From positions 243-64,242 of the forward strand of contig JAQBFV010000189.1 of assembly GCA_032123035.1 (NCBI GenBank): a DNA stretch of 64,000 bases, written 5' to 3'. Position 1 is the stretch's first letter. Every line of letters begins with the position of its first letter. Positions 11,938-51,459 of the stretch are shown here, piece by piece. Below the pieces are notes generated by a model. It made no database searches and had not been told where the DNA came from. It saw nothing but the letters and a program-made list of their open reading frames with translations. Origin of the DNA: Betaproteobacteria bacterium. GTDB taxonomy: Bacteria > Pseudomonadota > Gammaproteobacteria > Burkholderiales > SG8-41. A program made the translations under genes and the position numbers.

Positions 11938-12055
11938 AATGCGCAATGCTGAATGATAAATGGATCCGTACCTGCCGCGCCCGGTGTGCGGGCGTTGACC
12001 GCTTTTCGCTAAGCACTAAACATTGAACATTAAACATTGAACATTAAACATTGGT
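11938..12055. repeat. inverted heptad arrays AATGNNN x4 (11938-11965) and CATTRAA-type x6 (12014-12055)
   Basis: The AATG/CATT tetranucleotide recurs at an exact 7-nt period. The holC TAA stop (12044) lies inside the right array. The left array ends 11 nt before ATG 11927. Confidence 0.8.
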
Positions 12056-12472
12056 CTTGCTCAGGTCGTGCGTGCGGATCTCGTAGCCGCGGTCGCGGTA
12101 GAAGCGAAAGCGCTCGCGGGCCTGTGCGCGATCGGCCTCGTCGAGGCCGACGATCTCGACCAGCCGCTGGAAGCGGCTGAAAAACGCAGGCCACTCCGGA
12201 CGCAAGTTGAGCAGCACATGGTCATTGAGCAGATTCTCGCCCTGGTAGTCGACGATGACGGGCGTCACCGTCGCGAGTGGGTCGTCGGGCGCGCAGTGGG
12301 GAACGAATCCGATGGCCGGTGTCGTCCAAAGCATCCGGTCGAGGCGCTGTGCGGTCCCGGCATCGGCACAGAAGACCGTGACCTTGAGGCCGAGGGCGAA
12401 GGCTTTTGAGGACAGCACGCACGCCGTGCGCAACCTGTCGGGAACGTGGGTGTAGAAATCGATTTGTGTCAT
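12044..12472 (-). CDS. holC: DNA polymerase III chi subunit
   Basis: MTQIDFYTH...LWT...FVPH motifs, and the conserved position between pepA and valS. Confidence 0.85.
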   Translation of the reverse strand: MTQIDFYTHVPDRLRTACVLSSKAFALGLKVTVFCADAGTAQRLDRMLWTTPAIGFVPHCAPDDPLATVTPVIVDYQGENLLNDHVLLNLRPEWPAFFSRFQRLVEIVGLDEADRAQARERFRFYRDRGYEIRTHDLSKTNV

Positions 12473-12537
12473 TTATCGTGAATCGTAATTCGTTAAGTGC
12501 CGCTGCGGGACCAGGATTCACCATTCACGATTTACGA
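12469..12537. repeat. inverted heptad arrays TCRTNNN x4 (12469-12496) and TTYACSA x3 (12517-12537)
   Basis: TCGT/ACGA recur at a 7-nt period. The pepA TGA (12525) is inside the right array and the holC ATG (12472) is inside the left array. Confidence 0.75.
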
Positions 12538-14027
12538 CCGCCGCGCGCGCGGTTGATGAGAAACTGTGAGAGCAGCGGCACCGGCCGGCCCGTGCCGCCC
12601 TTTTCCTTGCCGCTTTTCCAGGCCGTGCCCGCGATGTCGAGGTGCGCCCACTTGTAGCTCTTGGTGAAGCGCGCCAGGAAGCAGGCCGCCGTTATGGCGC
12701 CCGCCGGGCGCCCACCGATGTTCGCGAAATCGGCGAAATTGCTCGAAAGCTGCTCCTGGTAGTCTTCCCATAGGGGCAGGCGCCAGGCACGGTCGTGCGC
12801 GGCCACGCCGGCTCCGAGCACTTCGCTTGCGAGGGTGTCATCGTTGGCGAACAAGCCGGTTGCGACGTGGCCCAGCGCGACCACGCAAGCGCCGGTGAGT
12901 GTCGCGATATCGATCACCGCCGCCGGTTTGAAGCGCTCGACGTAGGTGAGCGCATCGCACAGAATGAGGCGGCCCTCGGCGTCGGTGTTCAGGATTTCGA
13001 CGGTCTGCCCGGACAGGCTCTTCACGATGTCACCGGGCCTGGTGGCGCGTCCCCCAGGCATGTTCTCGGTGGTCGGAATGACCCCCACGACGTTCACCGG
13101 CAGGCGCATTTCCCCGACCACCTTCATCGTTCCCAGGACGCTTGCCGCGCCGCACATGTCGAATTTCATCTGGTCCATGTCGGCAGAGGGCTTGATAGAA
13201 ATCCCCCCCGTGTCGAAGGTGGTGCCCTTGCCGACGAGCGCCACCGGCCGCGCCGTCTTGGGTCCGCCGCGGTGTTCGAGCGTGATGAACTTGGGCGGTT
13301 GCGCACTCCCGCGTGCCACGGACAGCAATGCGCCCATGCCGAGCCGCTCCATGTCGGCGCGCTCCAGTACCTCGACCTTCATGCGGTAGCGCTTCGCCAA
13401 CTCTCGCGCCTGGTCCGCGAGGTACGCTGGCGTGCATACGTTGGGCGGCAGGTTGCCCAAGTCCCGCGCCAGCGCGACGCCATGCGCTACCGCAAGACCG
13501 TGCTCGAGCCCTGCGGCGGCGCGCCGCTCAGCCGTACGATCGTTGACGCTCAATACGAGCCGGCGCAAGGCGAAGTCATTGTCCTCGCGCTTGCTTTTCA
13601 TGCGGGTGAAGCGATAGGTGCATTCGCACGCAACCATGACGGCATGCGCGACCTTCCACGCAGCATCGCGTTTGCCGAGCGCAAGCTCCGTGAGATGCAA
13701 CGAGGCTTCCTCGGCCCCGGACGCGCCCAAGGCGCGGATGGCGGCCGCCACGGCGCTGCGGTACTGCTCCTCGCTGAACTGCGCTTCGCGCCCCAGTCCG
13801 ACCAACAGCACGCGATCAGCCGCGGCGCCAGGAACCTTGTGCAGGAACAGGGTCTTGCCGAGCTTACCCTGCATGTCGCCGCGCCGCAGGACGGCGCTGA
13901 GATATCCTTTCGCAGCGCGGTCGAGCACCGCACCGGCGCGGGAAAGCTTGCGCGGCTCGAACACACCCACCACCAGACAACCGTTGCGGGCGGACTGCAG
14001 CACGCCGCTTTTTATGCTAAATTCCAC
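12525..14027 (-). CDS. pepA: leucyl aminopeptidase
   Basis: NTDAEGRLILCDALTY and GKGTTFDTGGISIKP are M17 peptidase signatures. Confidence 0.95.
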   Translation of the reverse strand: MEFSIKSGVLQSARNGCLVVGVFEPRKLSRAGAVLDRAAKGYLSAVLRRGDMQGKLGKTLFLHKVPGAAADRVLLVGLGREAQFSEEQYRSAVAAAIRALGASGAEEASLHLTELALGKRDAAWKVAHAVMVACECTYRFTRMKSKREDNDFALRRLVLSVNDRTAERRAAAGLEHGLAVAHGVALARDLGNLPPNVCTPAYLADQARELAKRYRMKVEVLERADMERLGMGALLSVARGSAQPPKFITLEHRGGPKTARPVALVGKGTTFDTGGISIKPSADMDQMKFDMCGAASVLGTMKVVGEMRLPVNVVGVIPTTENMPGGRATRPGDIVKSLSGQTVEILNTDAEGRLILCDALTYVERFKPAAVIDIATLTGACVVALGHVATGLFANDDTLASEVLGAGVAAHDRAWRLPLWEDYQEQLSSNFADFANIGGRPAGAITAACFLARFTKSYKWAHLDIAGTAWKSGKEKGGTGRPVPLLSQFLINRARGGRKS

Positions 14028-15182: not shown

Positions 15183-16252
15183 GGACGCTGCGGCGATACA
15201 TTGCGACCGAAATCTTCGTCGCGACCGCTCTGTTCACGGCCGCGCTGGTGATGCTGTTCGCGTTCTTCGACATGGTGGAGGAGGTAAAGGACCTCGGCCG
15301 CGGCACCTACACGATGCGACTGATCGCGGGTTACGTCTTGCTTTCGGCGCCGGGGCACATCTACGAACTCTTTCCGATCGCGGTCCTGATCGGCGCGCTT
15401 TTCGCGCTCGCGCAACTCGTTGCGGGATCCGAGTATACGGTCATGCGCACCGCCGGCGTATCAACCGCGCGTTTCGTTACCACGCTCGTGGGAATCGGCC
15501 TCGTTCTTGCCATGCTCACGTTCGCTTTCGGGGAATTCGTCGGCCCGCCCGCGGAGCAGTTCGCGCAGCGCCTTCGCTCGCAGGCCATTACCGGCGTGGT
15601 GGCGCAGGAGTTTCGCTCGGGCCTGTGGATCAAAGACGGCCGTAGTTTCATCAACGTGGTCGAAGTGCTTCCCGACACCAGTCTGCGTGGCGTGCGGATC
15701 TACGATTTCGACGAGCAATATCGGCTGCGCTCCATCAGTTTCGCACAACGGGGAACTTATCAAAGCGGCCGGCGCTGGATGCTCCACGACGTTGCGCGCA
15801 CGAACTTCGATGGCAAGGAAACCTCGGTGCAGAAACTGGCGCAGGCGAGCTGGCAGTCGGTTCTCGATCCCGATCTCATCAGCGTGCTCCTGGTGAAGCC
15901 TGAAAAGATGTCGGCTTCGAGCCTCTATTCGTACACGCAGCACCTCAAGGAAAACCGGCAGCGGGCGCTGCGTTATGAAATCGCGCTTTGGAACAAGCTG
16001 ACCTATCCCCTGGCCGTTGTGGTGATGGTCGTGCTCGCGCTGCCTTTTGCGTATTTTCGTGGCCGCCAGGCGGGCGTCGGCGCCAAAATCTTCGCCGGCA
16101 TCATGCTCGGCCTGGTGTTCCACTTCCTGAATCGCCTGTTCTCGTACCTTGGTCTGATCAACGATTGGCCAGCCTTTGCCAGCGCCATCGTGCCCATCGT
16201 GATTTTTTTCTCGGCGGCGGTGGGGATGATCTGGTGGCAGGAGCGAAGATAA
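15179..16252 (+). CDS. lptG: LPS export ABC transporter permease LptG
   Basis: MRTLRRYIATEIF N-terminus and a YjgP/YjgQ-type permease fold. It is translationally coupled to lptF. Confidence 0.88.
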   Translation: MRTLRRYIATEIFVATALFTAALVMLFAFFDMVEEVKDLGRGTYTMRLIAGYVLLSAPGHIYELFPIAVLIGALFALAQLVAGSEYTVMRTAGVSTARFVTTLVGIGLVLAMLTFAFGEFVGPPAEQFAQRLRSQAITGVVAQEFRSGLWIKDGRSFINVVEVLPDTSLRGVRIYDFDEQYRLRSISFAQRGTYQSGRRWMLHDVARTNFDGKETSVQKLAQASWQSVLDPDLISVLLVKPEKMSASSLYSYTQHLKENRQRALRYEIALWNKLTYPLAVVVMVVLALPFAYFRGRQAGVGAKIFAGIMLGLVFHFLNRLFSYLGLINDWPAFASAIVPIVIFFSAAVGMIWWQERR

Positions 16253-16352
16253 GGCGGAAGGCGGAAGGCGGAAGGCGAGGGGGACCCTACTTAAGAGGTT
16301 TTTCCTTCATCCTTCATCCTTCATCCTTCATCCTTCATCCTTCATCCTTGAT
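16251..16352. repeat. inverted heptad arrays AAGGCGG x4 (16251-16278) and CCTTCAT x6 plus CCTTGAT (16304-16352)
   Basis: Perfect tandem 7-mers. The lptG TAA abuts the first array. The TGA of the RDD gene (16335), and its last codons KDEG, are encoded by the second array. Confidence 0.9.
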
Positions 16353-18633: not shown

Positions 18634-20327
18634 ATGGAACTGACTGGCGCTGAGATCGTCGTGCGCTGCCTCCAGGAGGAGGGGGTCGAGCACGTGTTCG
18701 GCTATCCCGGAGGCGCCGTGCTCTTCCTCTATGACGAGATCTTCAAGCAGGACAAGTTCAAGCACATCCTGGTGCGGCACGAGCAGGGCGCGATTCACGC
18801 GGCCGACGGCTATGCGCGGTCAACGGATAAGGTAGGGGTTGCACTGGTGACGTCCGGGCCGGGCGTAACAAACGCCGTCACGGGCATTGCCACCGCCCAC
18901 ATGGATTCCATTCCCCTGGTCATCATCACGGGCCAGGTGCCGACGCATGCGATCGGCCAGGACGCGTTCCAGGAGTGCGACGCGATCGGAATCACGCGGC
19001 CGTGCGTGAAGCATAACTTCCTGGTGAAGGACGTGAAGGATCTCGCGGTTACCATGAAGAAGGCTTTCTATATTGCGGCCACGGGCCGCCCGGGCCCGGT
19101 CGTGGTGGACATCCCGAAGGACGTGACGACGGCAAAGAGCGAGTTTCGCTATCCCGAGACGATTGCGATGCGCTCGTACAACCCGGTCACCAAAGGCCAC
19201 GCCGGGCAGATCAAGAAGGCGGTACAGCTCCTCGCAAAGGCCAAGCGCCCGATGATCTACGCCGGCGGGGGTGTGATCCTGGGCGGCGCGTCCGATGAGC
19301 TCACGCAACTCGTGCGCTCGCTCGGCTTTCCCTGCACGAACACCCTGATGGGGCTTGGCGCCTATCCGGCGACGGATCGTCAGTTTCTCGGAATGCTCGG
19401 CATGCACGGCACTTACGAAGCGAACATGGCGATGCAGCATTGCGACGTACTGCTCGCGATCGGGGCGCGCTTCGACGACCGCGTGATCGGCAACCCGCGC
19501 CACTTCTTCTCCGAGGAGCGCACCATTATCCACATCGATATCGATCCCTCCTCGATATCGAAGCGCGTCAAGGTCGACGTTCCTGTCGTCGGCGACGTGC
19601 GGGAGGTGCTGCGCGAGCTCATGAAACAACTGGAGGCCGCCAAGGAAAAGCCCGATCCGGAAGCGCTCAAGACGTGGTGGACGCAGATCGAGCTGTGGCG
19701 CTCACGCGACTGCCTCAAGTACGACCGCTCGAGCTCGCTCATCAAGCCGCAATACGTGATCGAGAAGCTCTACGAAGTCACCGGCGGCGATGCTTTCGTG
19801 ACCTCCGACGTGGGCCAGCACCAGATGTGGGCGGCGCAGTTCTACAAGTTCCAGAAACCGCGCCGCTGGATCAACTCGGGCGGGCTGGGCACGATGGGCT
19901 TCGGCCTGCCGGCGGCGATGGGCGTGCAGCTCGCGCACCCGGGCGCGACCGTCGCGTGCGTCACGGGCGAGGCCTCGATTCAGATGTGCATCCAGGAGCT
20001 CTCCACCTGCAAGCAATACCGGCTGCCGATCAAGGTGGTGAACCTCAACAACAAGTACATGGGCATGGTGCGCCAGTGGCAGGAGTTCTTTCACGGCAAC
20101 CGCTACGCGGAGTCGTACATGGACGCGCTGCCCGACTTCAGCAAGTTAGCGGAGTCGTATGGCCACATCGGCGTCAAGATCGAGAAGCCCGAGGACGTAG
20201 AGCCCGCGCTCAAGGAAGCGTTCGCGCGCAAGAGCGACCTCGTGTTCATGGATTTCGTGACGGACCAGACCGAGAACGTGTTCCCGATGATACCGGGCGG
20301 CAAGGGACTTTCGGAGATGATCCTGGT

Positions 20328-20331
<4 letters not shown>
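18634..20331 (+). CDS. ilvI: acetolactate synthase large subunit
   Basis: [31 protein letters not shown]-terminus and a ThDP motif region [14 protein letters not shown]. The 18 codons upstream of 18634 look non-coding. Confidence 0.93.
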
Positions 20332-21928
<1,597 letters not shown>

Positions 21929-21945
21929 TCAACGCTGTGCGGTGA

Positions 21946-22680
21946 GTGGGGAAAGGACGGGAAGATACGGTGAATATCGAGCAACAACGAGCTGACATAG
22001 CCACGCCGGAGGCCGCTGGCCAGAAGCCGCACCGCGCGAACGGCTACCCTCATCCCATCATTGCGCGTGAGGGCTGGCCCTTCATTGCGCTTTCCGTCAT
22101 CGTGGCCGTGCTGGTCCACGCGGCTGCGGGCCTGTGGTGGGCAGCGCCGCTGTGGCTCGTGGTCGTTTTGGTCCTTCAGTTCTTTCGCGACCCTCCACGC
22201 GCTGTTCCGCTCGAACCGAAGGCGGTCCTGTCACCGGCGGACGGGCGCATCGTCACGGTCGAACGCGCTCGCGACCCGTATCTCGAGCGCGACGCCCTGA
22301 AGATGAGCGTCTTCATGAACGTGTTCAACGCGCACTCCAACCGCAGCCCGGTGGACGGCGAGGTTCGCGAGGCGTGGTACCACACGGGTAAGTTCTTCAA
22401 CGCCGCGTTGTCCAAATCGTCGTTCGAGAACGAGCGTGCCGCGCTCTGGATCCGCACGCCGGGCGGTGCGGACGTGACGTGCGTGCAGATCGCGGGGCTG
22501 ATCGCGCGGCGCATCCTCTGCTATGCCCGGCCCGGCCAGCGCCTTGCGCGCGGCGAGCGCTACGGGTTCATCCGCTTCGGTTCCCGGGTCGATGTCTACC
22601 TGCCGTCGGGCGCGCGTCCGGTCGCGGCCGTTGGCGACAAGGTCTATGCCACCGAAAGCATTCTTGCGATATTTCCGTGA
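21946..22680 (+). CDS. psd: phosphatidylserine decarboxylase (short form)
   Basis: [13 protein letters not shown], and [14 protein letters not shown] containing the self-cleaving GS site. The start is GTG at 21946, or GTG at 21970. Confidence 0.85.
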
Positions 22681-22762
22681 ACGGTGAACAGTGAACGGTG
22701 AACAGAAACCGGGACGCCCACTGCCGATGACCCACCGTTTACCGTTTACCGGTTACCGTTGA
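22677..22762. repeat. inverted heptad arrays GTGAACR x4 (22677-22704) and CCGTTTA/CCGGTTA/CCGTTGA x4 (22735-22762)
   Basis: In the + RNA, 23 of 27 positions pair, including three G-U pairs. The psd TGA is in the first unit. The pssA GTG (22769) follows the last unit by 6 nt. Confidence 0.85.
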
Positions 22763-22768
22763 CCGCCC

Positions 22769-23593
22769 GTGTACGAACCCCGCGAGAACAAGCTCTTCAT
22801 CAAGTCGCGTTTTGCGCGGCGCGGCATCTACTGGTTGCCGAACGTCTTCACGACAATCGCGTTGTTTGCAGGGTTCTACGCCATCGTGCAGGCGATGGGC
22901 GGGCGCTTCGAGCATGCGTCGATCGCGATTTTCGTTGCGCTGGTATTCGACGGACTCGATGGACGGGTGGCTCGGCTGACGCGCACGCAGAGCGCGTTCG
23001 GGGCCGAGTACGACAGTCTCTCCGACATGGTGTCTTTCGGGGTCGCGCCGGCGCTCGTGGTCTATGTCTGGGCGCTCAAGGATTTTGCGCTGATGAAGAA
23101 CATCCCGCTGTTGGGGCCGTGGCTTACCAGCAAGCTGGGCTGGATCGCCGCGTTCATCTACTGCGTGTGTGCAGCCCTGCGGCTCGCACGCTTCAACACG
23201 ACGCTCGAGATTGCCGACAAGCGGTTCTTCCAGGGCCTGCCGAGTCCAGCCGCCGCGTGTCTCGTGGCCGGTCTCGTGTGGGCGCTGAACGAATACCAGA
23301 TCGAGGGCCGCGACGTGAAATGGCTGGCGTGGGCGCTTACGGTTTTCGCGGGCCTCACCATGGTGAGCAATCTCAAGTTCTACAGCGGCAAAGACATCAA
23401 TCTCCGCAAGAGCGTGCCGTTCTCCATGCTAGTGGGGATTACCCTGGGCATTGTGGCGCTCTTCATGTTCTCGAGCACGCTGCCCGAACTGCTGTTCCTG
23501 CTGTTCTTGAGTTACGGTTTCTCGGGTTATGTGCTCTGGGCGTATGGACAGGTCAAAAAGCGGGCCGCCGACCGGGCGCCGCCGCCGCAATGA
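22769..23593 (+). CDS. pssA: CDP-diacylglycerol--serine O-phosphatidyltransferase
   Basis: DGLDGRVARL...SDMVSFG is the CDP-alcohol phosphatidyltransferase motif. The GTG start is the first possible start after an in-frame TGA, and there is no obvious SD. Confidence 0.88.
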   Translation: MYEPRENKLFIKSRFARRGIYWLPNVFTTIALFAGFYAIVQAMGGRFEHASIAIFVALVFDGLDGRVARLTRTQSAFGAEYDSLSDMVSFGVAPALVVYVWALKDFALMKNIPLLGPWLTSKLGWIAAFIYCVCAALRLARFNTTLEIADKRFFQGLPSPAAACLVAGLVWALNEYQIEGRDVKWLAWALTVFAGLTMVSNLKFYSGKDINLRKSVPFSMLVGITLGIVALFMFSSTLPELLFLLFLSYGFSGYVLWAYGQVKKRAADRAPPPQ

Positions 23594-23632
23594 AGTTGCG
23601 TGTTGTCCTGAAAGCCGTTATATTTCAGGAAC

Positions 23633-23719
23633 ATGAACGCAATGACGCAGGCCAACTCGCCCCTCGACCTTGCCAGTCTCCTGCTGGCACGCCTGCTGCT
23701 GCGCCTTCGCGGCGCATAA
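23633..23719 (+). CDS. candidate leucine-rich leader peptide for leuA attenuation (28 aa)
   Basis: MNAMTQANSPLDLASLLLARLLLRLRGA has 9 Leu in 28 codons, including LLL twice. It lies 120 nt upstream of leuA, with GC-rich pairing segments following. The SD is weak. Confidence 0.45.
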   Translation: MNAMTQANSPLDLASLLLARLLLRLRGA

Positions 23720-23839
23720 ATCCTTTATTCTCTTTCCAGTAGTAGATTAAAGCGCGGGCGCACTACGGCGCGCGGCGCGGTTTACAAACATTTGCATCGT
23801 GGCTGCGGCCGCGGTGGGCGGTAAGAATTGGAGACGGTC

Positions 23840-25381
23840 ATGGCTAAAGAGCACTTGATCATATTCGACACGACAATGCGTGACGGCGAGCAAAGCCCGG
23901 GCGCCTCGATGACTCGGGAGGAGAAGCTGCGCATCGCGCGCCAACTCGAGCGGATGCGCGTCGATGTGATCGAGGCAGGGTTCCCGGCGGCCAGCGAGGG
24001 CGACTTCGAGTCGGTAAAGGCAGTGGCCTCCATCATCAAGGACAGCACCGTGTGCGGGCTTGCGCGCGCCAACGAGCGTGACGTCCGGCGCTGCGGGGAG
24101 GCGGTAAAGCCGGCGCGCAGCCCGAGGGTGCACACCTTCATCGCGACGTCGCCGATCCACATGGAGAAGAAGCTGCGCATGGAGCCCTCACAGGTGATCG
24201 AGCAGGCCGTGCGCGCGGTGAAATGGGCGCGCGAGTACACCGACAATGTCGAGTTTTCGCCTGAGGATGCAGGCCGTTCGGACAGCGATTTTCTCTGCCG
24301 TATTTTGGAGCAGGTAATCGCGGCGGGCGCGACCACGATCAACATTCCCGATACCGTCGGCTACACATTTCCCGAGCATTTCGGGAAGCTCATCGGCACG
24401 CTGCGCGAGCGCATCCCGAATTCCGACAAGGTCATCTGGTCGGTGCACTGCCATAACGACCTTGGTCTCGCGGTTGCCAACTCCCTGGCGGCGGTGCTGA
24501 CCGGAGCGCGGCAGGTTGAGTGCACCATCAACGGGCTGGGTGAGCGGGCGGGCAATGCCGCGCTTGAAGAGATTGTGATGGCCGTGCGCACGCGCCAGGA
24601 TATCTTTCCCTGCGACACCCGCATCGATACGAGCCAGATCGTTCCGGCAAGCCGGCTTGTCGCGGGCGTCACGGGCTTTCCCGTTCAGCCCAACAAGGCA
24701 ATCGTCGGGGCAAACGCGTTCGCGCACGAGGCAGGGATACACCAGGACGGGGTGATCAAGAGCCGCGACACCTACGAGATCATGCGCGCCGAGGATGTGG
24801 GCTGGCATGCGAACCGCCTGGTGCTGGGCAAGCACTCCGGCCGCAACGCATTCCGGCAGCGCCTGCAGGAGATCGGCACCGTGCTGGAGTCTGAGGAGGC
24901 GCTGAACGCCGCGTTCAAGCGCTTCAAGGAGTTGGCCGACAAGAAGCACGAGATTTTCGACGAGGATCTCCAGGCGCTGATTACTGAGGAGAACCTCGAT
25001 CACGTCGACAGTGAGCACTACAGGCTCGTCTCGCTAACCGCCCACTCGGAGACCGGCGAGCAGCCCTTCGCCACGATCGTCGTGTCGGAGGACGGCGCGG
25101 AGCGCCGCGCCGAGGCGCGCGGTAGCGGTCCGGTCGACGCTGCGTTCAAGGCGATCGAGTCCATCGTCGGCAGCGGCGCGGAGCTGCTACTCTATTCTGT
25201 CAATAACATCACGACGGGCACGGATTCGCAGGGGGAGGTGACGGTAAGGCTGTCGAAGAGTGGCCGTATCGTCAACGGGCAAGGGGCCGACACCGACATC
25301 GTAGTGGCGTCAGCGAAGGCCTACCTCAACGCGCTGAACAAGCTGCACTCCAAGGTCGAACGCATCAACCCGCAGGTCTAA
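23840..25381 (+). CDS. leuA: 2-isopropylmalate synthase
   Basis: [37 protein letters not shown], and a C-terminal LeuA dimerisation/regulatory domain. GGAG lies 6 nt before ATG 23840. Confidence 0.95.
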
Positions 25382-25383
25382 TT

Positions 25384-25397
25384 GAGTGACGAGTGAC
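25384..25397 (+). repeat. two tandem heptads GAGTGAC GAGTGAC between leuA and the DUF2905 gene
   Basis: Read directly. Same GTGA-type unit family as the larger arrays. Confidence 0.6.
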
Positions 25398-25398
25398 G

Positions 25399-25599
25399 AT
25401 GGCGAAGTGGCTGATTACAGCCGGGATCGTGCTCGTTGCGCTGGGTCTGTTGTGGCCCCTGCTCTCAAAGCTGGGCCTCGGCAGCCTGCCCGGCGACATC
25501 AGGGTCGAACGCAAGGGGTTCACGTTCTATTTTCCGATCACCACCGGCATTTTGGTCTCGCTGGGCATCACGCTCATTCTCTGGATTTTCCGTCGCTAA
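25399..25599 (+). CDS. DUF2905-type small membrane protein
   Basis: MAKWLITAGIVLVALGLLWP...LPGDIRVERKGFTFYFPITT...; two TM segments, 66 aa. Confidence 0.7.
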   Translation: MAKWLITAGIVLVALGLLWPLLSKLGLGSLPGDIRVERKGFTFYFPITTGILVSLGITLILWIFRR

Positions 25600-25602
25600 G
25601 GT

Positions 25603-25937
25603 TCATTTTCCATACCGCCGGACATAGGCGATCGCCGCACAGAAGAAGGTGAATGCGAATGCGACCTCGGCGAGCGCGAGTTGGGCTGCGATGCCGCGTT
25701 CGCTCCATGCGCGCACGACGCCCTCCGCAAAGTAGACGAGGATGAGGAGCATCGACCAGCGGTAGGTGTAGGGCCTGCCGTGCAGGACTCCACGCAGCGG
25801 CACGAGCAGGGGCAGCGTCTTAAGGATCAGCCACGAGCCGCCGGGCCGCAACGGCGCGAGCCACAGCTCCCAGGCAAGGCAAAGTACCGTGAGGGCAACG
25901 AGGCTCCCGCAGGCGGTGAGATAGGCGGCGCGCAGGC

Positions 25938-25941
<4 letters not shown>
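25603..25941 (-). CDS. DUF2069-type membrane protein
   Basis: Four TM segments with WELWLAP...LKTLPLL...RPYTYRW. It sits in the usual position downstream of a WrbA-type gene cluster. Confidence 0.65.
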
Positions 25942-27274
<1,333 letters not shown>

Positions 27275-41272: not shown

Positions 41273-41349
<77 letters not shown>

Positions 41350-42225: not shown

Positions 42226-43847
42226 TGTCAATGAGCCGAGCCCGTATGGAGCAGGCGGAGCGCCGGGCGCCGGGGGCGGCAAGCAGCACCGGCGCACACC
42301 CAGCGCCGTACTGGCGCTCACTCTTCCTGTTCAACGTCTACCGCCTGGTCGTTGGGCTGCTGCTATTACTCGGGGTCGGGCTATGGGGCGAGAACATCAT
42401 GTTCGGCTCACAGGACCGCACGCTCTTCCTGTTTGCCGACATCGCCTACATCGTGTTCAGCGTCGCGTGCTTCGTGACGATCGAGACGCGCCGGCACTTC
42501 AACCTGCAGCTCATGACGCAGGTGGTCGCCGACATCGTGTTCATCGCGCTTCTGATCGCCGCCAGCGGCGGAATTTCGAGCGGGCTGGGCCTGCTGCTGC
42601 TGACCACACTGGCCGGCGCAGGGCTTATCAGCCGGGGCCAGCTGACGCTGTTCTTCGCCGCGCTCGCCGGCATCGCAGTGTTGCTCGAACAAACGTACCA
42701 GGTGCTGGCCTACGACGCTCCGGTGGGGCAGTACGCGCAGGCCGGTCTTCTGTCCGCGGCCTATTTCGCCATCGCATGGCTTGCCCACGCGCTTGCCAAG
42801 CACACGCTGGCGAGCGAGGAGCTGGCGGCACGTCGCGAGGTCGACCTCGCGAATATGGAGCAGGTGAACGCGCTCGTCATCCGCGACATGCAGGACGGGG
42901 TGTTGGTAGTCGACGGGCGCGGCGTCATCCGGCAATCCAACACGCGCGCGGAGCAGCTGCTGGGACCGATCCGCCGCGATGCCGGGGAAGTGACGCTCGC
43001 CGGGTACGCCCCGGCACTGGGCGCTCGATTTGAACAATGGCGCAGCCAAAAGGGTGCGGACACGGCGGGTGTCAGGCCTTTCAGCAGCGCGGTCGGCGCG
43101 CGTTTCGTGCCGATCGGCAGGAGCCGCCAGATCGGAGCCGTCATCTTTCTCGAGGACCAGAGCCGGATCCAGTCGCAGGCACGCCAGTTGAAGCTCGCAG
43201 CGATGGGGCGGCTCACCGCCAACATCGCGCACGAGATTCGTAACCCCCTTGGGGCCATCAGCCACGCCGCCGAACTCCTGCGCGAGGAGCCGACGATCGA
43301 TGCGACCACCCAGCGCCTGATCACGATCATCAACGAGAACACGCGGCGCCTGGACGGCATGGTGAACAACGTGCTGCGGCTGAGCCGCGGCGACCAGGCG
43401 CATCGCGAGCGCTTCAAGGTAGTGAATTTTCTCAAGACGTTCGTCGGGGAGTTCACGCAGATTGAGCGCATTGACCCCGAGATATTCTGGCTCGAGCTCA
43501 CCGGAGACGCTGAGGTGCTGTTTGATCGCAGCCATCTGAACCAGGTCATGTGGAATCTGTGCCGCAACGCGTTGCGGCACAGCCGGCGGGAGCCGGAGAG
43601 CATCCGCATCCTCGTCGGCACGACGCACTCCGACACTGTTGTAAAATTGGACGTGGTCGATGATGGACCGAGCATCACTCCCGAAGTGCGTGCCCGTCTG
43701 TTCGAGCCTTTCTTTACGACCGCGGCCGCCGGAACCGGCCTCGGTCTGTATATTGCGCGAGAAGTGTGCGAGGCGAATGGCGCGACCCTGGACCACGTGG
43801 AGACGCCCTCGGGCACGCAGTTCAGTGTACTTTGTCGTGTGGCCTGA
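42222..43847 (+). CDS. PilS-like sensor histidine kinase (polytopic N-terminus, PAS-like linker, HisKA, HATPase)
   Basis: About six TM segments. H-box is AHEIRNPLGAI. The N-box region is NLCRNALRHS and the G-boxes are DDGPSI / GTGLGLYIARE. Confidence 0.85.
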   Translation: MMSMSRARMEQAERRAPGAASSTGAHPAPYWRSLFLFNVYRLVVGLLLLLGVGLWGENIMFGSQDRTLFLFADIAYIVFSVACFVTIETRRHFNLQLMTQVVADIVFIALLIAASGGISSGLGLLLLTTLAGAGLISRGQLTLFFAALAGIAVLLEQTYQVLAYDAPVGQYAQAGLLSAAYFAIAWLAHALAKHTLASEELAARREVDLANMEQVNALVIRDMQDGVLVVDGRGVIRQSNTRAEQLLGPIRRDAGEVTLAGYAPALGARFEQWRSQKGADTAGVRPFSSAVGARFVPIGRSRQIGAVIFLEDQSRIQSQARQLKLAAMGRLTANIAHEIRNPLGAISHAAELLREEPTIDATTQRLITIINENTRRLDGMVNNVLRLSRGDQAHRERFKVVNFLKTFVGEFTQIERIDPEIFWLELTGDAEVLFDRSHLNQVMWNLCRNALRHSRREPESIRILVGTTHSDTVVKLDVVDDGPSITPEVRARLFEPFFTTAAAGTGLGLYIAREVCEANGATLDHVETPSGTQFSVLCRVA

Positions 43848-43853
43848 CAAACC

Positions 43854-44051
43854 GGTGAATGGTGAATGGTGAATGGTGAATGGTGAATGGTGAATGGTGA
43901 ATGGTGAATGGAGAATGGTGAATGGTGAATGGAGAATGGTGAATGGTGAATGGTGAATGGTGCGTCGAAACAGCAGGGCTGCTTGAGAATGTCTTCGCGA
44001 GTTATGGGGTGCGAACCACCACTCACCACTCACGAATCACGACTCACGGCT
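43854..44051. repeat. largest heptad locus: 15 tandem units GGTGAAT (two are GGAGAAT) at 43854-43958 plus a degenerate 16th, a spacer of about 50 nt, then 5 inverted units CACCACT CACCACT CACGAAT CACGACT CACGGCT at 44017-44051
   Basis: Counted unit by unit. The pilS-like TGA lies 7 nt before the first unit, and the pilR-like ATG lies 8 nt after the last. Confidence 0.95.
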
Positions 44052-44058
44052 TCTTGAG

Positions 44059-45447
44059 ATGAGCGCAAACAGCCAAGTACTCGTCATCGACGACGAGGCC
44101 GACATCCGCGAGCTTCTGAGCCTCACGCTCGCGCGCATGGGGCTTGAGGCGCATTGCGCCGCGAATACGACAGAGGCGTACGAGTTGCTTGTAAAGAACA
44201 CGTACAACCTCTGCCTGACCGACATGCGGCTGGCCGACGGCGACGGACTCGCCGTCGTCGAATACGTCAGCAAGAATCATCCCGACCTGCCCGTTGCGGT
44301 CATTACCGCGCACGGCAGCACGGAGAACGCGGTTGCGGCCCTGAAGGCGGGTGCGTTCGATTACCTCGCGAAACCGGTATCCCTCAATCAGCTCCGCGCT
44401 CTCGTGCGCTCGGCATTGAAACTGCCCGCGCCGGGCGGGGACCAATCGCAAGAAGACGAGGCCCCGGCCCAGGGGCTGCTGATCGGCGAATCCGCGCAGA
44501 TGCGGGCGACGCGCGCGATGATCGAGCGGTTGGCGCGCACGCAAGCGCCGATTCACGTCACGGGCGAATCGGGCAGCGGCAAAGAGCTCGCCGCGCGGCT
44601 GATTCACACCAAAGGCCCGCGTAACGACGGGCCGTTTGTGGCGGTCAATTGCGGCGCAATACCGGAGAACCTGATGGAAAGCGAGTTCTTCGGTTACCGG
44701 AAAGGCGCTTTCACGGGCGCCACTGCTGACCGCGACGGCTTCTTCCAGGCCGCGAGTGGCGGCACGCTTTTCCTCGACGAGGTCGCCGACCTGCCGTTGC
44801 CCATGCAGGTGAAGCTCCTGCGGGCAATTCAGGAAAAAAAGGTCCGCAAGGTTGGCGCCACCGGCGAGGAAGCCGTGGATGTGCGCCTGATCAGCGCCAC
44901 GCACCGCAATCTTGGCGATGAGGTGAAAAGCAGTAATTTCCGGCAGGATCTCTATTACCGTCTCAACGTGATCGAATTGCGGATGCCGTCGCTGCGGGAG
45001 ATGCACGCGGACATACCGCTGCTCGCGGAGACGTTCTTCGCACGCCATGCCAGCGCTGGAAGCGGCCCGGTCCCGCGCCTCTCGGAGGAAGCGCTGAACC
45101 GGCTGCAGCACTATGATTTTCCCGGCAACGTACGCGAGCTGGAGAACGTGCTCGAGCGCGCGTTAGCCCTTGCCGCCGAACAGGAGATTCAGCCCGAGGA
45201 CTTGCAGCTCGGGCCGGTGCGCGCATCGGTAGCCACGGTTGTCGACGAAGAGGAGCCGGTCGCTGCCGCGGGCTTGCCGCTCCAGGAGCGGCTGGACTCG
45301 GTCGAGCGACAGGCGATACTCGACGCGCTTGCGCAGACGCGCTACAACCGCACCGCGGCGGCCAAAGTGCTCGGCATCACCTTCAGGGCGCTGCGCTATC
45401 GGATGGAGCGGCTCGGGATCACGGATGAGCTCGACTCGAAGGACTGA
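44059..45447 (+). CDS. sigma-54-dependent response regulator (PilR/NtrC family)
   Basis: REC domain (VLVIDDE...DMRLADGDG), AAA+ domain with GESGSGKE and GAFTGA, and a C-terminal Fis-type HTH. Confidence 0.92.
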   Translation: MSANSQVLVIDDEADIRELLSLTLARMGLEAHCAANTTEAYELLVKNTYNLCLTDMRLADGDGLAVVEYVSKNHPDLPVAVITAHGSTENAVAALKAGAFDYLAKPVSLNQLRALVRSALKLPAPGGDQSQEDEAPAQGLLIGESAQMRATRAMIERLARTQAPIHVTGESGSGKELAARLIHTKGPRNDGPFVAVNCGAIPENLMESEFFGYRKGAFTGATADRDGFFQAASGGTLFLDEVADLPLPMQVKLLRAIQEKKVRKVGATGEEAVDVRLISATHRNLGDEVKSSNFRQDLYYRLNVIELRMPSLREMHADIPLLAETFFARHASAGSGPVPRLSEEALNRLQHYDFPGNVRELENVLERALALAAEQEIQPEDLQLGPVRASVATVVDEEEPVAAAGLPLQERLDSVERQAILDALAQTRYNRTAAAKVLGITFRALRYRMERLGITDELDSKD

Positions 45448-51165: not shown

Positions 51166-51459
51166 ATGCCGAAAGCGAGGAAGAAGTCGGGCAAGAGGAA
51201 ATTGAAGAAAACGAAGAAACTGGCAAGAATGCGGCCGGCGAAACACAAAACAAGAAAACGCCCGGGCACACGCAAGCCGGCACGCAGGAAGGCGGTACGG
51301 CGCAAGAAGGCAGCACCGCGTAAAAAGATTGCGCGGCGCAGGAAAGCGGCACAGCGCAAAAAGACTGCGCGGCGCAAAGCGGCGGCAGTAGCCCCTGTGG
51401 CTCCGCGGCCGGTGGCAGTTCCGGGCGCCTGGCCCTTCCCGATGGGCAGCCGACCTTAG
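51166..51459 (+). CDS. small, extremely basic Lys/Arg/Ala/Pro-rich protein (histone-H1-like composition)
   Basis: AGGAGG lies 5 nt before the ATG. The sequence is MPKARKKSGKRKLKKTKKLARMRPAKHKTRKRPG...RRKKAAPRKKIARRRKAAQRKKTARRK. A strong intrinsic terminator lies 74 nt downstream. Confidence 0.6.
   Translation: MPKARKKSGKRKLKKTKKLARMRPAKHKTRKRPGTRKPARRKAVRRKKAAPRKKIARRRKAAQRKKTARRKAAAVAPVAPRPVAVPGAWPFPMGSRP

Follow-up and report, generated by a model that had tools for sequence, protein, structure and literature searches.

Why should the gap between two neighbouring genes be occupied by inverted seven-nucleotide repeats that begin at the stop codon of the first gene and end a few nucleotides before an unusual start codon of the second? 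This question is raised by the 88-nt spacer between psd and pssA in a 64,000-nt stretch of DNA (hereafter the window) that sequence comparison places in an uncultured Burkholderiales lineage. We find that the spacer hairpin is a quasi-palindrome of heptanucleotide simple sequence repeats (SSRs), one member of a period-7 family with a GTGA/TCAC core in operon-internal spacers, and comparison with related loci shows a short upstream open reading frame (uORF), rather than the stem, to be the conserved part of the spacer. Tentatively, and with slightly less than even confidence, we read the locus as an SSR-derived hairpin overlying a uORF that would couple pssA to upstream translation by termination-reinitiation. 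The functional side of all readings weighed below is computational inference. The parts of the locus are as follows.

21946–22680, plus strand: psd (phosphatidylserine decarboxylase), open reading frame (ORF) with TGA stop at 22678–22680; PF02666 on 99.9%-identical contigs, C-terminus aligning with relatives
22677–22704, plus strand: 5' arm, GTGAACG GTGAACA GTGAACG GTGAACA, detected by TRF and an inverted-repeat finder, with the psd TGA inside unit 1
22691–22762, plus strand: longest spacer ORF, starting at the unit-3 GTG and running for 23 codons, in frame with ATG 22727
22705–22734, plus strand: loop of 30 nt, containing GATGA
22727–22762, plus strand: uORF of 11 codons (MTHRLPFTGYR) plus TGA, with its ATG in the loop, its body formed by the 3' arm and its stop 6 nt ahead of the pssA GTG
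22735–22762, plus strand: 3' arm, CCGTTTA CCGTTTA CCGGTTA CCGTTGA, detected by TRF and the inverted-repeat finder
22763–22768, plus strand: linker CCGCCC between uORF stop and pssA start, without a Shine-Dalgarno (SD) sequence
22769–23593, plus strand: pssA (CDP-diacylglycerol--serine O-phosphatidyltransferase), ORF with GTG start; PF01066 in independent gene calls, conserved N-terminus MYEPRE

The GTG at 22769 is the sole plausible start of pssA, because an in-frame TGA (22760–22762) lies just upstream, start codons further into the gene and in frame would cost conserved residues, and PssA of relatives begins Met-Tyr-Glu at the equivalent codon. The same GTG was chosen when genes were called independently on 10 near-identical contigs. 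The initial annotation, made from the letters of the window, had likewise placed the start here, 6 nt past the last repeat unit, and had recorded the in-frame TGA before it, but it overlooked that this TGA is the stop of a conserved uORF 6 nt upstream. Its statement that the start has no SD also agrees with our scores: the anti-SD duplex reaches only -2.9 kcal/mol, where the median for the window is -5.7, a weakness shared by about one quarter of the window genes, and an SD is absent from all three window genes placed after a 3' arm. Ten separately assembled contigs from separate samples or sequencing runs (99.7–99.98% identical to the window) carry an identical spacer, and thus the hairpin is not an assembly artefact. 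A promoter search returned none in the spacer, where a separate pssA promoter had been named as one finding that would speak against coupling. Similarly, no terminator-like site was detected in 22300–23100; the stem is followed by CCGCCCGUG and lacks a U-tract, so that it is not an intrinsic terminator. The spacer matched no Rfam family (20000–26000 searched at E <= 1, the whole window at gathering scores); a tRNA gene at 41273–41346 was the sole window match at gathering score.

Is the stem itself what selection has kept? TRF reports period-7 arrays at 22677–22703 (3.9 copies) and 22734–22765 (4.6 copies) with 88–90% matches, and the inverted-repeat finder pairs 22677–22703 with 22737–22763 (27 nt, 78% Watson-Crick, 33 nt between the arms). 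The heptad hairpin and its three G-U pairs were correctly described at the outset, with the psd TGA (22678–22680) rightly placed within the first GTGAACG, whereas the pairing given as 23 of 27 positions is 24 of 27 by script count (21 Watson-Crick plus 3 G-U). A fold of -43.1 kcal/mol (z = -3.4) is predicted for the 131-nt region, and none of 200 shuffles folded as well. Two stem registers are near-equally populated, with summed pair probabilities of 9.4 for the originally proposed one (energy -30.2 kcal/mol) and 9.9 for one shifted by 7 nt; the minimum free energy (MFE) structure adopts the shifted register, in which the psd stop is unpaired.

The G-U pairs had been taken to indicate complementarity at the RNA rather than the DNA level, an argument that does not survive closer inspection. 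All three occur at one unit position (left-unit G3 against A3 of the right-unit complement), two of them in the two identical CCGTTTA copies, and one A.C mismatch would become G-U on the opposite strand. For this spacer the antisense strand has the more stable fold (-36.0 kcal/mol, compared with -30.8 for the sense strand); of 19 comparable heptad spacers, 10 favour the sense strand and 8 the antisense, with one near-tie. Strand-specific RNA selection was therefore rejected, as was covariation support for the stem, since no double (compensatory) change was seen among the 9 pair positions at which L103, a related locus, departs from the window. The spacer thus has neither the compensatory changes nor the better folding of the transcribed strand that characterise a conserved structured cis-regulatory RNA.

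These results bear directly on the idea that the stem is a processing or stability element, in which about 24 bp (two or more helical turns) would be cut by RNase III or would block 3' exonucleases and so set the psd:pssA mRNA ratio, in the manner of the Haemophilus influenzae hmw1A hairpin and of REP stem-loops. Such a role would suit the length of paired heptad stems (21–32 bp, i.e., 3–4.6 units) and the missing U-tract, which sets the element apart from intrinsic terminators, and it has an experimental precedent in a heptameric-SSR hairpin of a 5' untranslated region (UTR) that is cleaved by RNase III (PMC12721329). Yet the strand bias and covariation expected of a selected RNA stem are both missing, and the stem is absent from sister lineages (below). 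We regard this explanation as unlikely, while noting that it is compatible with translational coupling through the uORF.

Comparison across lineages suggests where the hairpin came from. The related loci, labelled L with a number, are comparison sequences that include related uncultured Burkholderiales. Over the region bounded by the two flanking genes below, identity to the window is 86.5% for L103/L096, 83.5% for L094/L100 and 78.6% for L091, and the psd–pssA spacers of these and other lineages differ as listed.

20912–21928, plus strand: ilvC, ORF
23828–25381, plus strand: leuA, ORF
L103 and L096–L099: orthologous 4+4 heptad element, with 20 of 26 positions paired only
L094 and L100: one GTGAACG unit, 70–74 nt, same SD-less GTG
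L091: 93 nt, unrelated, with GGAGG and ATG
L003, L002, L106, L113, L184 and L187: spacers of at most about 15 nt or TGATG overlaps

A classical TGATG overlap joins psd and pssA in L106, L113 and L187, and other heptads (CGTGAAT/TCACGAC, GGCTCAC, GGAAATA/CCCCATT) occupy the spacer in L001, L007, L104, L107, L110, L111, L183 and L186. When the spacers were aligned (alignment A1), the left arm of the window exceeded both L094 and L100 by 14 nt, or two units, and the 3' arm aligned without gaps to non-repeat sequence of the same two lineages. Because the left arm gained 14 nt and the right arm corresponds gap-free to non-repeat sequence, the 4+4 hairpin is a derived SSR expansion. Ancestrally, psd and pssA were separated by about 70 nt that held one GTGAACG unit behind the psd stop, and pssA already began at an SD-less GTG. 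In the line of descent to the window and L096/L103, two units (14 nt) were added on the left, and the right side became heptad-periodic at unchanged length.

This history weakens the mechanism proposed in the initial annotation, namely that the hairpin brings the psd stop and the pssA GTG face to face and lets a terminating ribosome re-initiate across the base of the stem. One of the two registers does give this geometry, 22677 pairing with 22763 and the start following 6 nt later; stop-to-start heptad hairpins recur elsewhere (window 12473–12542; the ilvC–psd spacers of L003, L028 and L011), and the three window genes that follow a 3' arm all lack an SD. What does not hold is a dedicated device: L094 and L100 use the same SD-less GTG with 28–45 nt of non-hairpin sequence ahead of it and with no stop/start juxtaposition, arm lengths are unequal in other elements, compensatory changes are absent, and the G-U argument fails. 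Moreover, the competing register is equally populated with the stop unpaired in the MFE structure, a ribosome at the psd stop must already have melted the stem base, and re-initiating ribosomes would be supplied more simply by the uORF, which stops 6 nt from the start. We therefore consider juxtaposition improbable, a shade more so than a processing role.

If the stem is derived, what in the spacer is conserved? Sequence comparison identifies the short uORF. In the central spacer, the window shares with L094 and L100 a single 5-mer, GATGA, of which GATG is found in all five aligned sequences. This loop GATG(A) and the TGA ahead of the pssA start are the invariant pieces of the spacer, and between them they bound the uORF. 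The 23-codon ORF from unit 3 is also present in L103 and L096. Equivalent uORFs that end 1–6 nt ahead of the pssA start were found in 10 of 15 clade lineages, compared with ATG-started ones in only 4 of 36 long spacers of more distant betaproteobacteria; the clade has the following versions.

Window, L094 and L100: 11 codons, 6-nt gap to the pssA start
L103/L096: 11 codons, 4-nt gap
L007, L104, L107 and L110: 19 codons, 2-nt gap, with the ATG exactly at -62
L183: 20 codons, 2-nt gap
L108: 33 codons, 1-nt gap, with no heptads in the spacer
L001 and L111: versions with a GTG start

Within the ungapped alignment of L007, L104, L107 and L110, just three runs of at least three bases are invariant, namely the ATG, a 3'-arm CACGG and the start of pssA, while the flanks of the ATG vary. 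uORF length is constant within each group (11 and 19 codons). Under dinucleotide shuffles the chance of such an ORF was 0.6–6.8% per spacer (0.019 for the window). Two long spacers fetched later as a test gave one lineage with a uORF (L183) and one without (L186). The spacer is also better preserved than expected of drifting sequence: between the window and L103 it is identical at 73 of 86 positions (85%), compared with 171 of 249 four-fold degenerate psd and pssA sites (69%), a difference of about 3 standard deviations by normal approximation. The arms differ between these two lineages without any 7-nt indel, as would be expected if the 3' arm has to keep frame, while other arrays vary between strains. 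A conserved small protein was considered and rejected, as the peptides are unrelated between lineages; therefore the act of translation, not its product, would matter.

Our favoured, tentative explanation builds on this arrangement, in which the stop lies a few nucleotides from the downstream start and both the start and the stop of the uORF are conserved, as in uORF coupling. Ribosomes on the uORF would melt the 3' arm and terminate at TGA 22760 beside the SD-less GTG, and re-initiation at this GTG, 6 nt downstream, would couple PssA synthesis to upstream translation. They might enter by initiation at the loop-exposed ATG 22727, or arrive from the psd stop through overlapping GTGA/ATGA junctions, since each 5'-arm unit carries an overlapping start and stop (GTGA), the arm as a whole offers TGA and GTG in all three frames, and the 3' arm has no stop in any of its three sense frames before the terminal TGA. 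One chain of junctions would run from TGA22678/GTG22677 to TGA22692/GTG22691 and into the 23-codon ORF; another would lead from GTG22684 to TGA22699/GTG22698 and on to TGA22728/ATG22727. The hairpin would then be a by-product of repeat growth that modulates access to the uORF and to the pssA start.

Several observations count against this explanation. No uORF is present in L186 or L004, and the 12-codon uORF of L091 ends 19 nt upstream of an SD-equipped ATG, ahead of its SD. The encoded peptides are not conserved, and changes between the window and L103 fall mostly at codon positions 1 and 2 (hand count). The window uORF ATG has no good SD, the nearest candidate being GGGA 12 nt upstream, and a multi-step re-initiation relay would be inefficient. 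The uORF-bearing lineages are not independent but form roughly three groups plus L183 and L108. Finally, heptad architecture makes such ORFs likelier by construction: starts abound in the 5' arm, where every frame is closed, and the 3' arm stays open in every frame. The full-shuffle null therefore overstates their significance.

The last point also favours a competing view, that hairpin and uORF are incidental to heptad slippage and that pssA starts de novo at its SD-less GTG, e.g., with the help of protein S1. Weak SDs in about a quarter of the window genes, the absence of both covariation and strand bias, and similar ORFs in 11 of 36 spacers of more distant lineages are all what a neutral by-product would leave behind, and so is a repeat family that runs through the whole window with variable copy number and unequal arms. 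It accounts less well for a spacer that is more conserved than four-fold sites, for an ATG and stop that stay invariant amid varying flanks in two separate groups, for uORF lengths fixed per group, and for psd–pssA arrays without unit indels though neighbouring arrays vary between strains. A neutral origin is accordingly a possibility that we take seriously but doubt.

How far does the repeat family extend? Seven period-7 arrays of at least three copies occur in the window, compared with 0–2 for each other period from 2 to 15, and GTGAACGGTGAAC has 16 window matches at up to 2 mismatches against 1.24 expected. The GTGAAYG unit is present at three unlinked window loci. In a pooled set of 45 arrays from the window and related loci, GTGA or TCAC is found in 31 (5% expected) and TGA in 34 (19% expected), and 14 arrays have a complementary array within 150 nt, compared with 2 of 45 for a direct-orientation control; the stems of paired arrays span 3–4.6 units. 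Heptad units are more complementary to an assumed 16S rRNA 3' tail sequence, and more SD-like, than random heptads. Unit number shifts in 7-nt steps between strains with identical PssA at the leuA–DUF2905 junction (L100 x4 vs L101 x6; L096 x3 vs L098 x7). At psd–pssA we saw no unit-number variation, neither among 10 contigs 99.7–99.98% identical nor between the window and L096/L103, and the former comparison gave no sign of contingency-locus behaviour there. The family members elsewhere in the window are listed here.

12017–12053, overlapping the stop of the minus-strand gene 12044–12472: period-7 array (TAAACATTGAACAT)x2.6
12478–12500 and 12515–12537, between two minus-strand genes: GTGAATC-type inverted heptads that fill a 52-nt spacer (element at 12473–12542)
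16251–16277 and 16303–16349: (AAGGCGG)x3.9 and (TCCTTCA)x6.7, only about 5/7 complementary
25384–25399, between the leuA stop and the DUF2905 start: lone array, of the (GAGTGAC)/(GCGTGAT)/(GGCGATG) kind across the window, L096/L098 and L100/L101 taken together
43854–43962: (GGTGAAT)x15.6, with the partner CACCACT/CACGAAT/CACGACT at 44017–44048 and very unequal arms

Arm unit numbers are unequal in two of these elements (15.6 vs 4.6; 3.9 vs 6.7). A mobile hairpin (MITE or REP-like) was ruled out, as the loops of the four window elements have no sequence in common and only the heptad unit recurs. ORFs placed like the psd–pssA uORF appear in other members: within 43845–44064, ORFs of 35 and 39 codons from the last 5' units end 1 nt before, or overlap as ATGA, the ATG at 44059, and ORFs of this relay type that end at or overlap the downstream start also exist in the ilvC–psd hairpins of L011 and L003.

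From such cases one can ask whether GTGA-core heptad arrays act generally as tracks for ribosomes, a speculation to which we assign a low probability. Every unit would be a GTG plus TGA junction and, because 7 is not a multiple of 3, stop and restart would be offered in all three frames; linked 5-codon mini-ORFs would let ribosomes hop 14 nt at a time, and the complementary 3' arm, open in all frames, would carry the last uORF to the SD-less start of the next gene. GGUGA units are complementary to UCACC of the 16S rRNA 3' tail, and this pairing may play a related role. Were this true, arrays would keep translational coupling across expanded spacers, adjacent cistrons would have their relative expression tuned by unit gain or loss and by the length of the hairpin, and the long-noted surplus of heptanucleotide repeats between bacterial genes would have a functional explanation.

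Set beside known systems, the coupling proposed for psd–pssA has a familiar core. Termination-reinitiation at overlapping or adjacent stop and start codons (ATGA, GTGA, TGATG) is an established mechanism, and the uORF stop 2–6 nt from an SD-poor start resembles it, as does each GTGA unit, which is itself such a junction; the difference is a separate mini-cistron, possibly a chain of 5-codon ORFs, inside a repeat hairpin between genes. The REP/BIME elements of enterobacteria are dispersed imperfect palindromes, copies of one consensus of about 35 nt, that lie between co-transcribed or convergent genes, and some of their stem-loops begin a few nucleotides from a stop codon. Here, in contrast, only a 7-nt unit type is shared, loops are unrelated and arms grow by the unit, and the hairpins are therefore not REP elements.

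As a repeat, the element belongs with the heptanucleotide long SSRs, which are reported to be over-represented and intergenic; Burkholderia species ranked among the genomes that have most of them (Mrazek et al. 2007, cited through PMC4679880 and PMC4692102). The psd–pssA arrays have at least three copies and a period-7 excess, and they share with this class the tandem 7-nt units, the intergenic position and, for the family, the 7-nt steps between strains. They differ in the GTGA/TCAC core (31/45), the frequent inverted partner (14/45) and the stop-to-start filling of operon-internal spacers. Direct repeats of TAACTGA in marine Beggiatoaceae and cyanobacteria, located just upstream of starts and often overlapping the upstream stop, have been proposed to have a translational role (PMC4679880). 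Both kinds of repeat lie before a start, overlap the preceding stop, close all three frames and stand in for the SD, but the unit differs (here GTGAACR and CCGTTTA), TAACTGA sets are almost never inverted (1/170), and no uORF or relay is described there.

A closer structural parallel is the (ATCTTTC)n tract in the 5' UTR of Haemophilus influenzae hmw1A, a heptameric SSR that forms one arm of a long RNA hairpin, is processed by RNase III and controls expression (PMC12721329). In both cases a long hairpin ahead of a gene has a heptad SSR as an arm, with transcription at psd–pssA inferred from operon context. At hmw1A the other arm is G-rich and non-repeat, the site is a promoter-proximal 5' UTR and it is phase-variable, whereas here the element lies between cistrons, has heptads in both arms and showed no unit variation. 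Heptamers of Xanthomonas (GGGAATC) and Nostoc (GGGGAYT) occur at the same junctions in related species with variable length and sequence, some as inverted pairs (PMC4692102); those units are G-rich with proposed G-quadruplexes, in contrast to the GTGA units here, which have no G-tracts. Our literature search found no description of a GTGA-core heptad family, of paired heptad arms bridging cistrons or of an arm-borne uORF.

In many bacteria no long SSR class is more over-represented than heptanucleotide repeats, and their function is not agreed upon. The locus and its relatives show a sub-family marked by a GTGA core, frequent inverted partners and stop-to-start placement in essential operons, and beneath one such hairpin the conserved feature is a uORF abutting an SD-less start, which leads to the hypothesis of relay re-initiation. 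On the practical side, heptad arrays confuse start-codon calling: the psd start is called variably (235, 236 or 244 aa), and gene callers place DUF2905 starts inside arrays at the leuA–DUF2905 junction. In soil metagenome-assembled genomes, assembly and strain-level variation is also likely at such arrays.

Other candidates for the psd–pssA spacer were examined and set aside. A bacterial SECIS or readthrough at the psd UGA is contradicted by the next in-frame TGA (22699–22701), only 7 codons on; selenocysteine, readthrough or an N-terminal extension of PssA is excluded by in-frame stops, the uORF being out of frame with pssA in L103/L096 and the L007 group; and a CRP-type GTGA...TCAC operator has the wrong spacing. 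For lone arrays, an orientation rule that would put the G-rich strand in the sense direction and so avoid loading of Rho was set aside because independent loci are few. A predicted 8-bp helix (22661–22668 with 22781–22788) would enclose the entire spacer and the start codon, joining psd Leu-Ala codons (CTTGCG) with pssA Arg-Glu codons (CGCGAG). The Ala third base varies freely among relatives, and this helix is probably a coding coincidence.

Further observations concern individual arrays. About 50 nt upstream of the 12017–12053 array lies a degenerate complementary xAATGxx tract (11944–11964). Within the 12473–12542 element the TGA of the upstream gene sits in the 5' arm and an SD-less ATG (12472) lies 2–5 nt past the 3' arm. 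The region orthologous to 16251–16349 in L094 (121–229), between convergent genes, has kept the arrays with different unit numbers. Heptads at 43854–44061 fill a 211-nt spacer ahead of a response-regulator-like gene (ATG 44059). The ilvC–psd junction is similarly varied: L091, L094, L100 and L109 carry (GTGATGA)n arrays with TGA, ATG and GTG in each unit; L003, L028, L009 and L011 have full heptad hairpins from the ilvC stop to the psd start, with (CCCTTCA)x5 of L003 ending 3 nt ahead of the ATG; and the window retains a 17-nt remnant (21929–21945). Outside the heptad family, an 18/36-nt tandem repeat (ACGGCGCAAAAAGACTGC, 2.2–4.6 copies) is located at 51297–51378.

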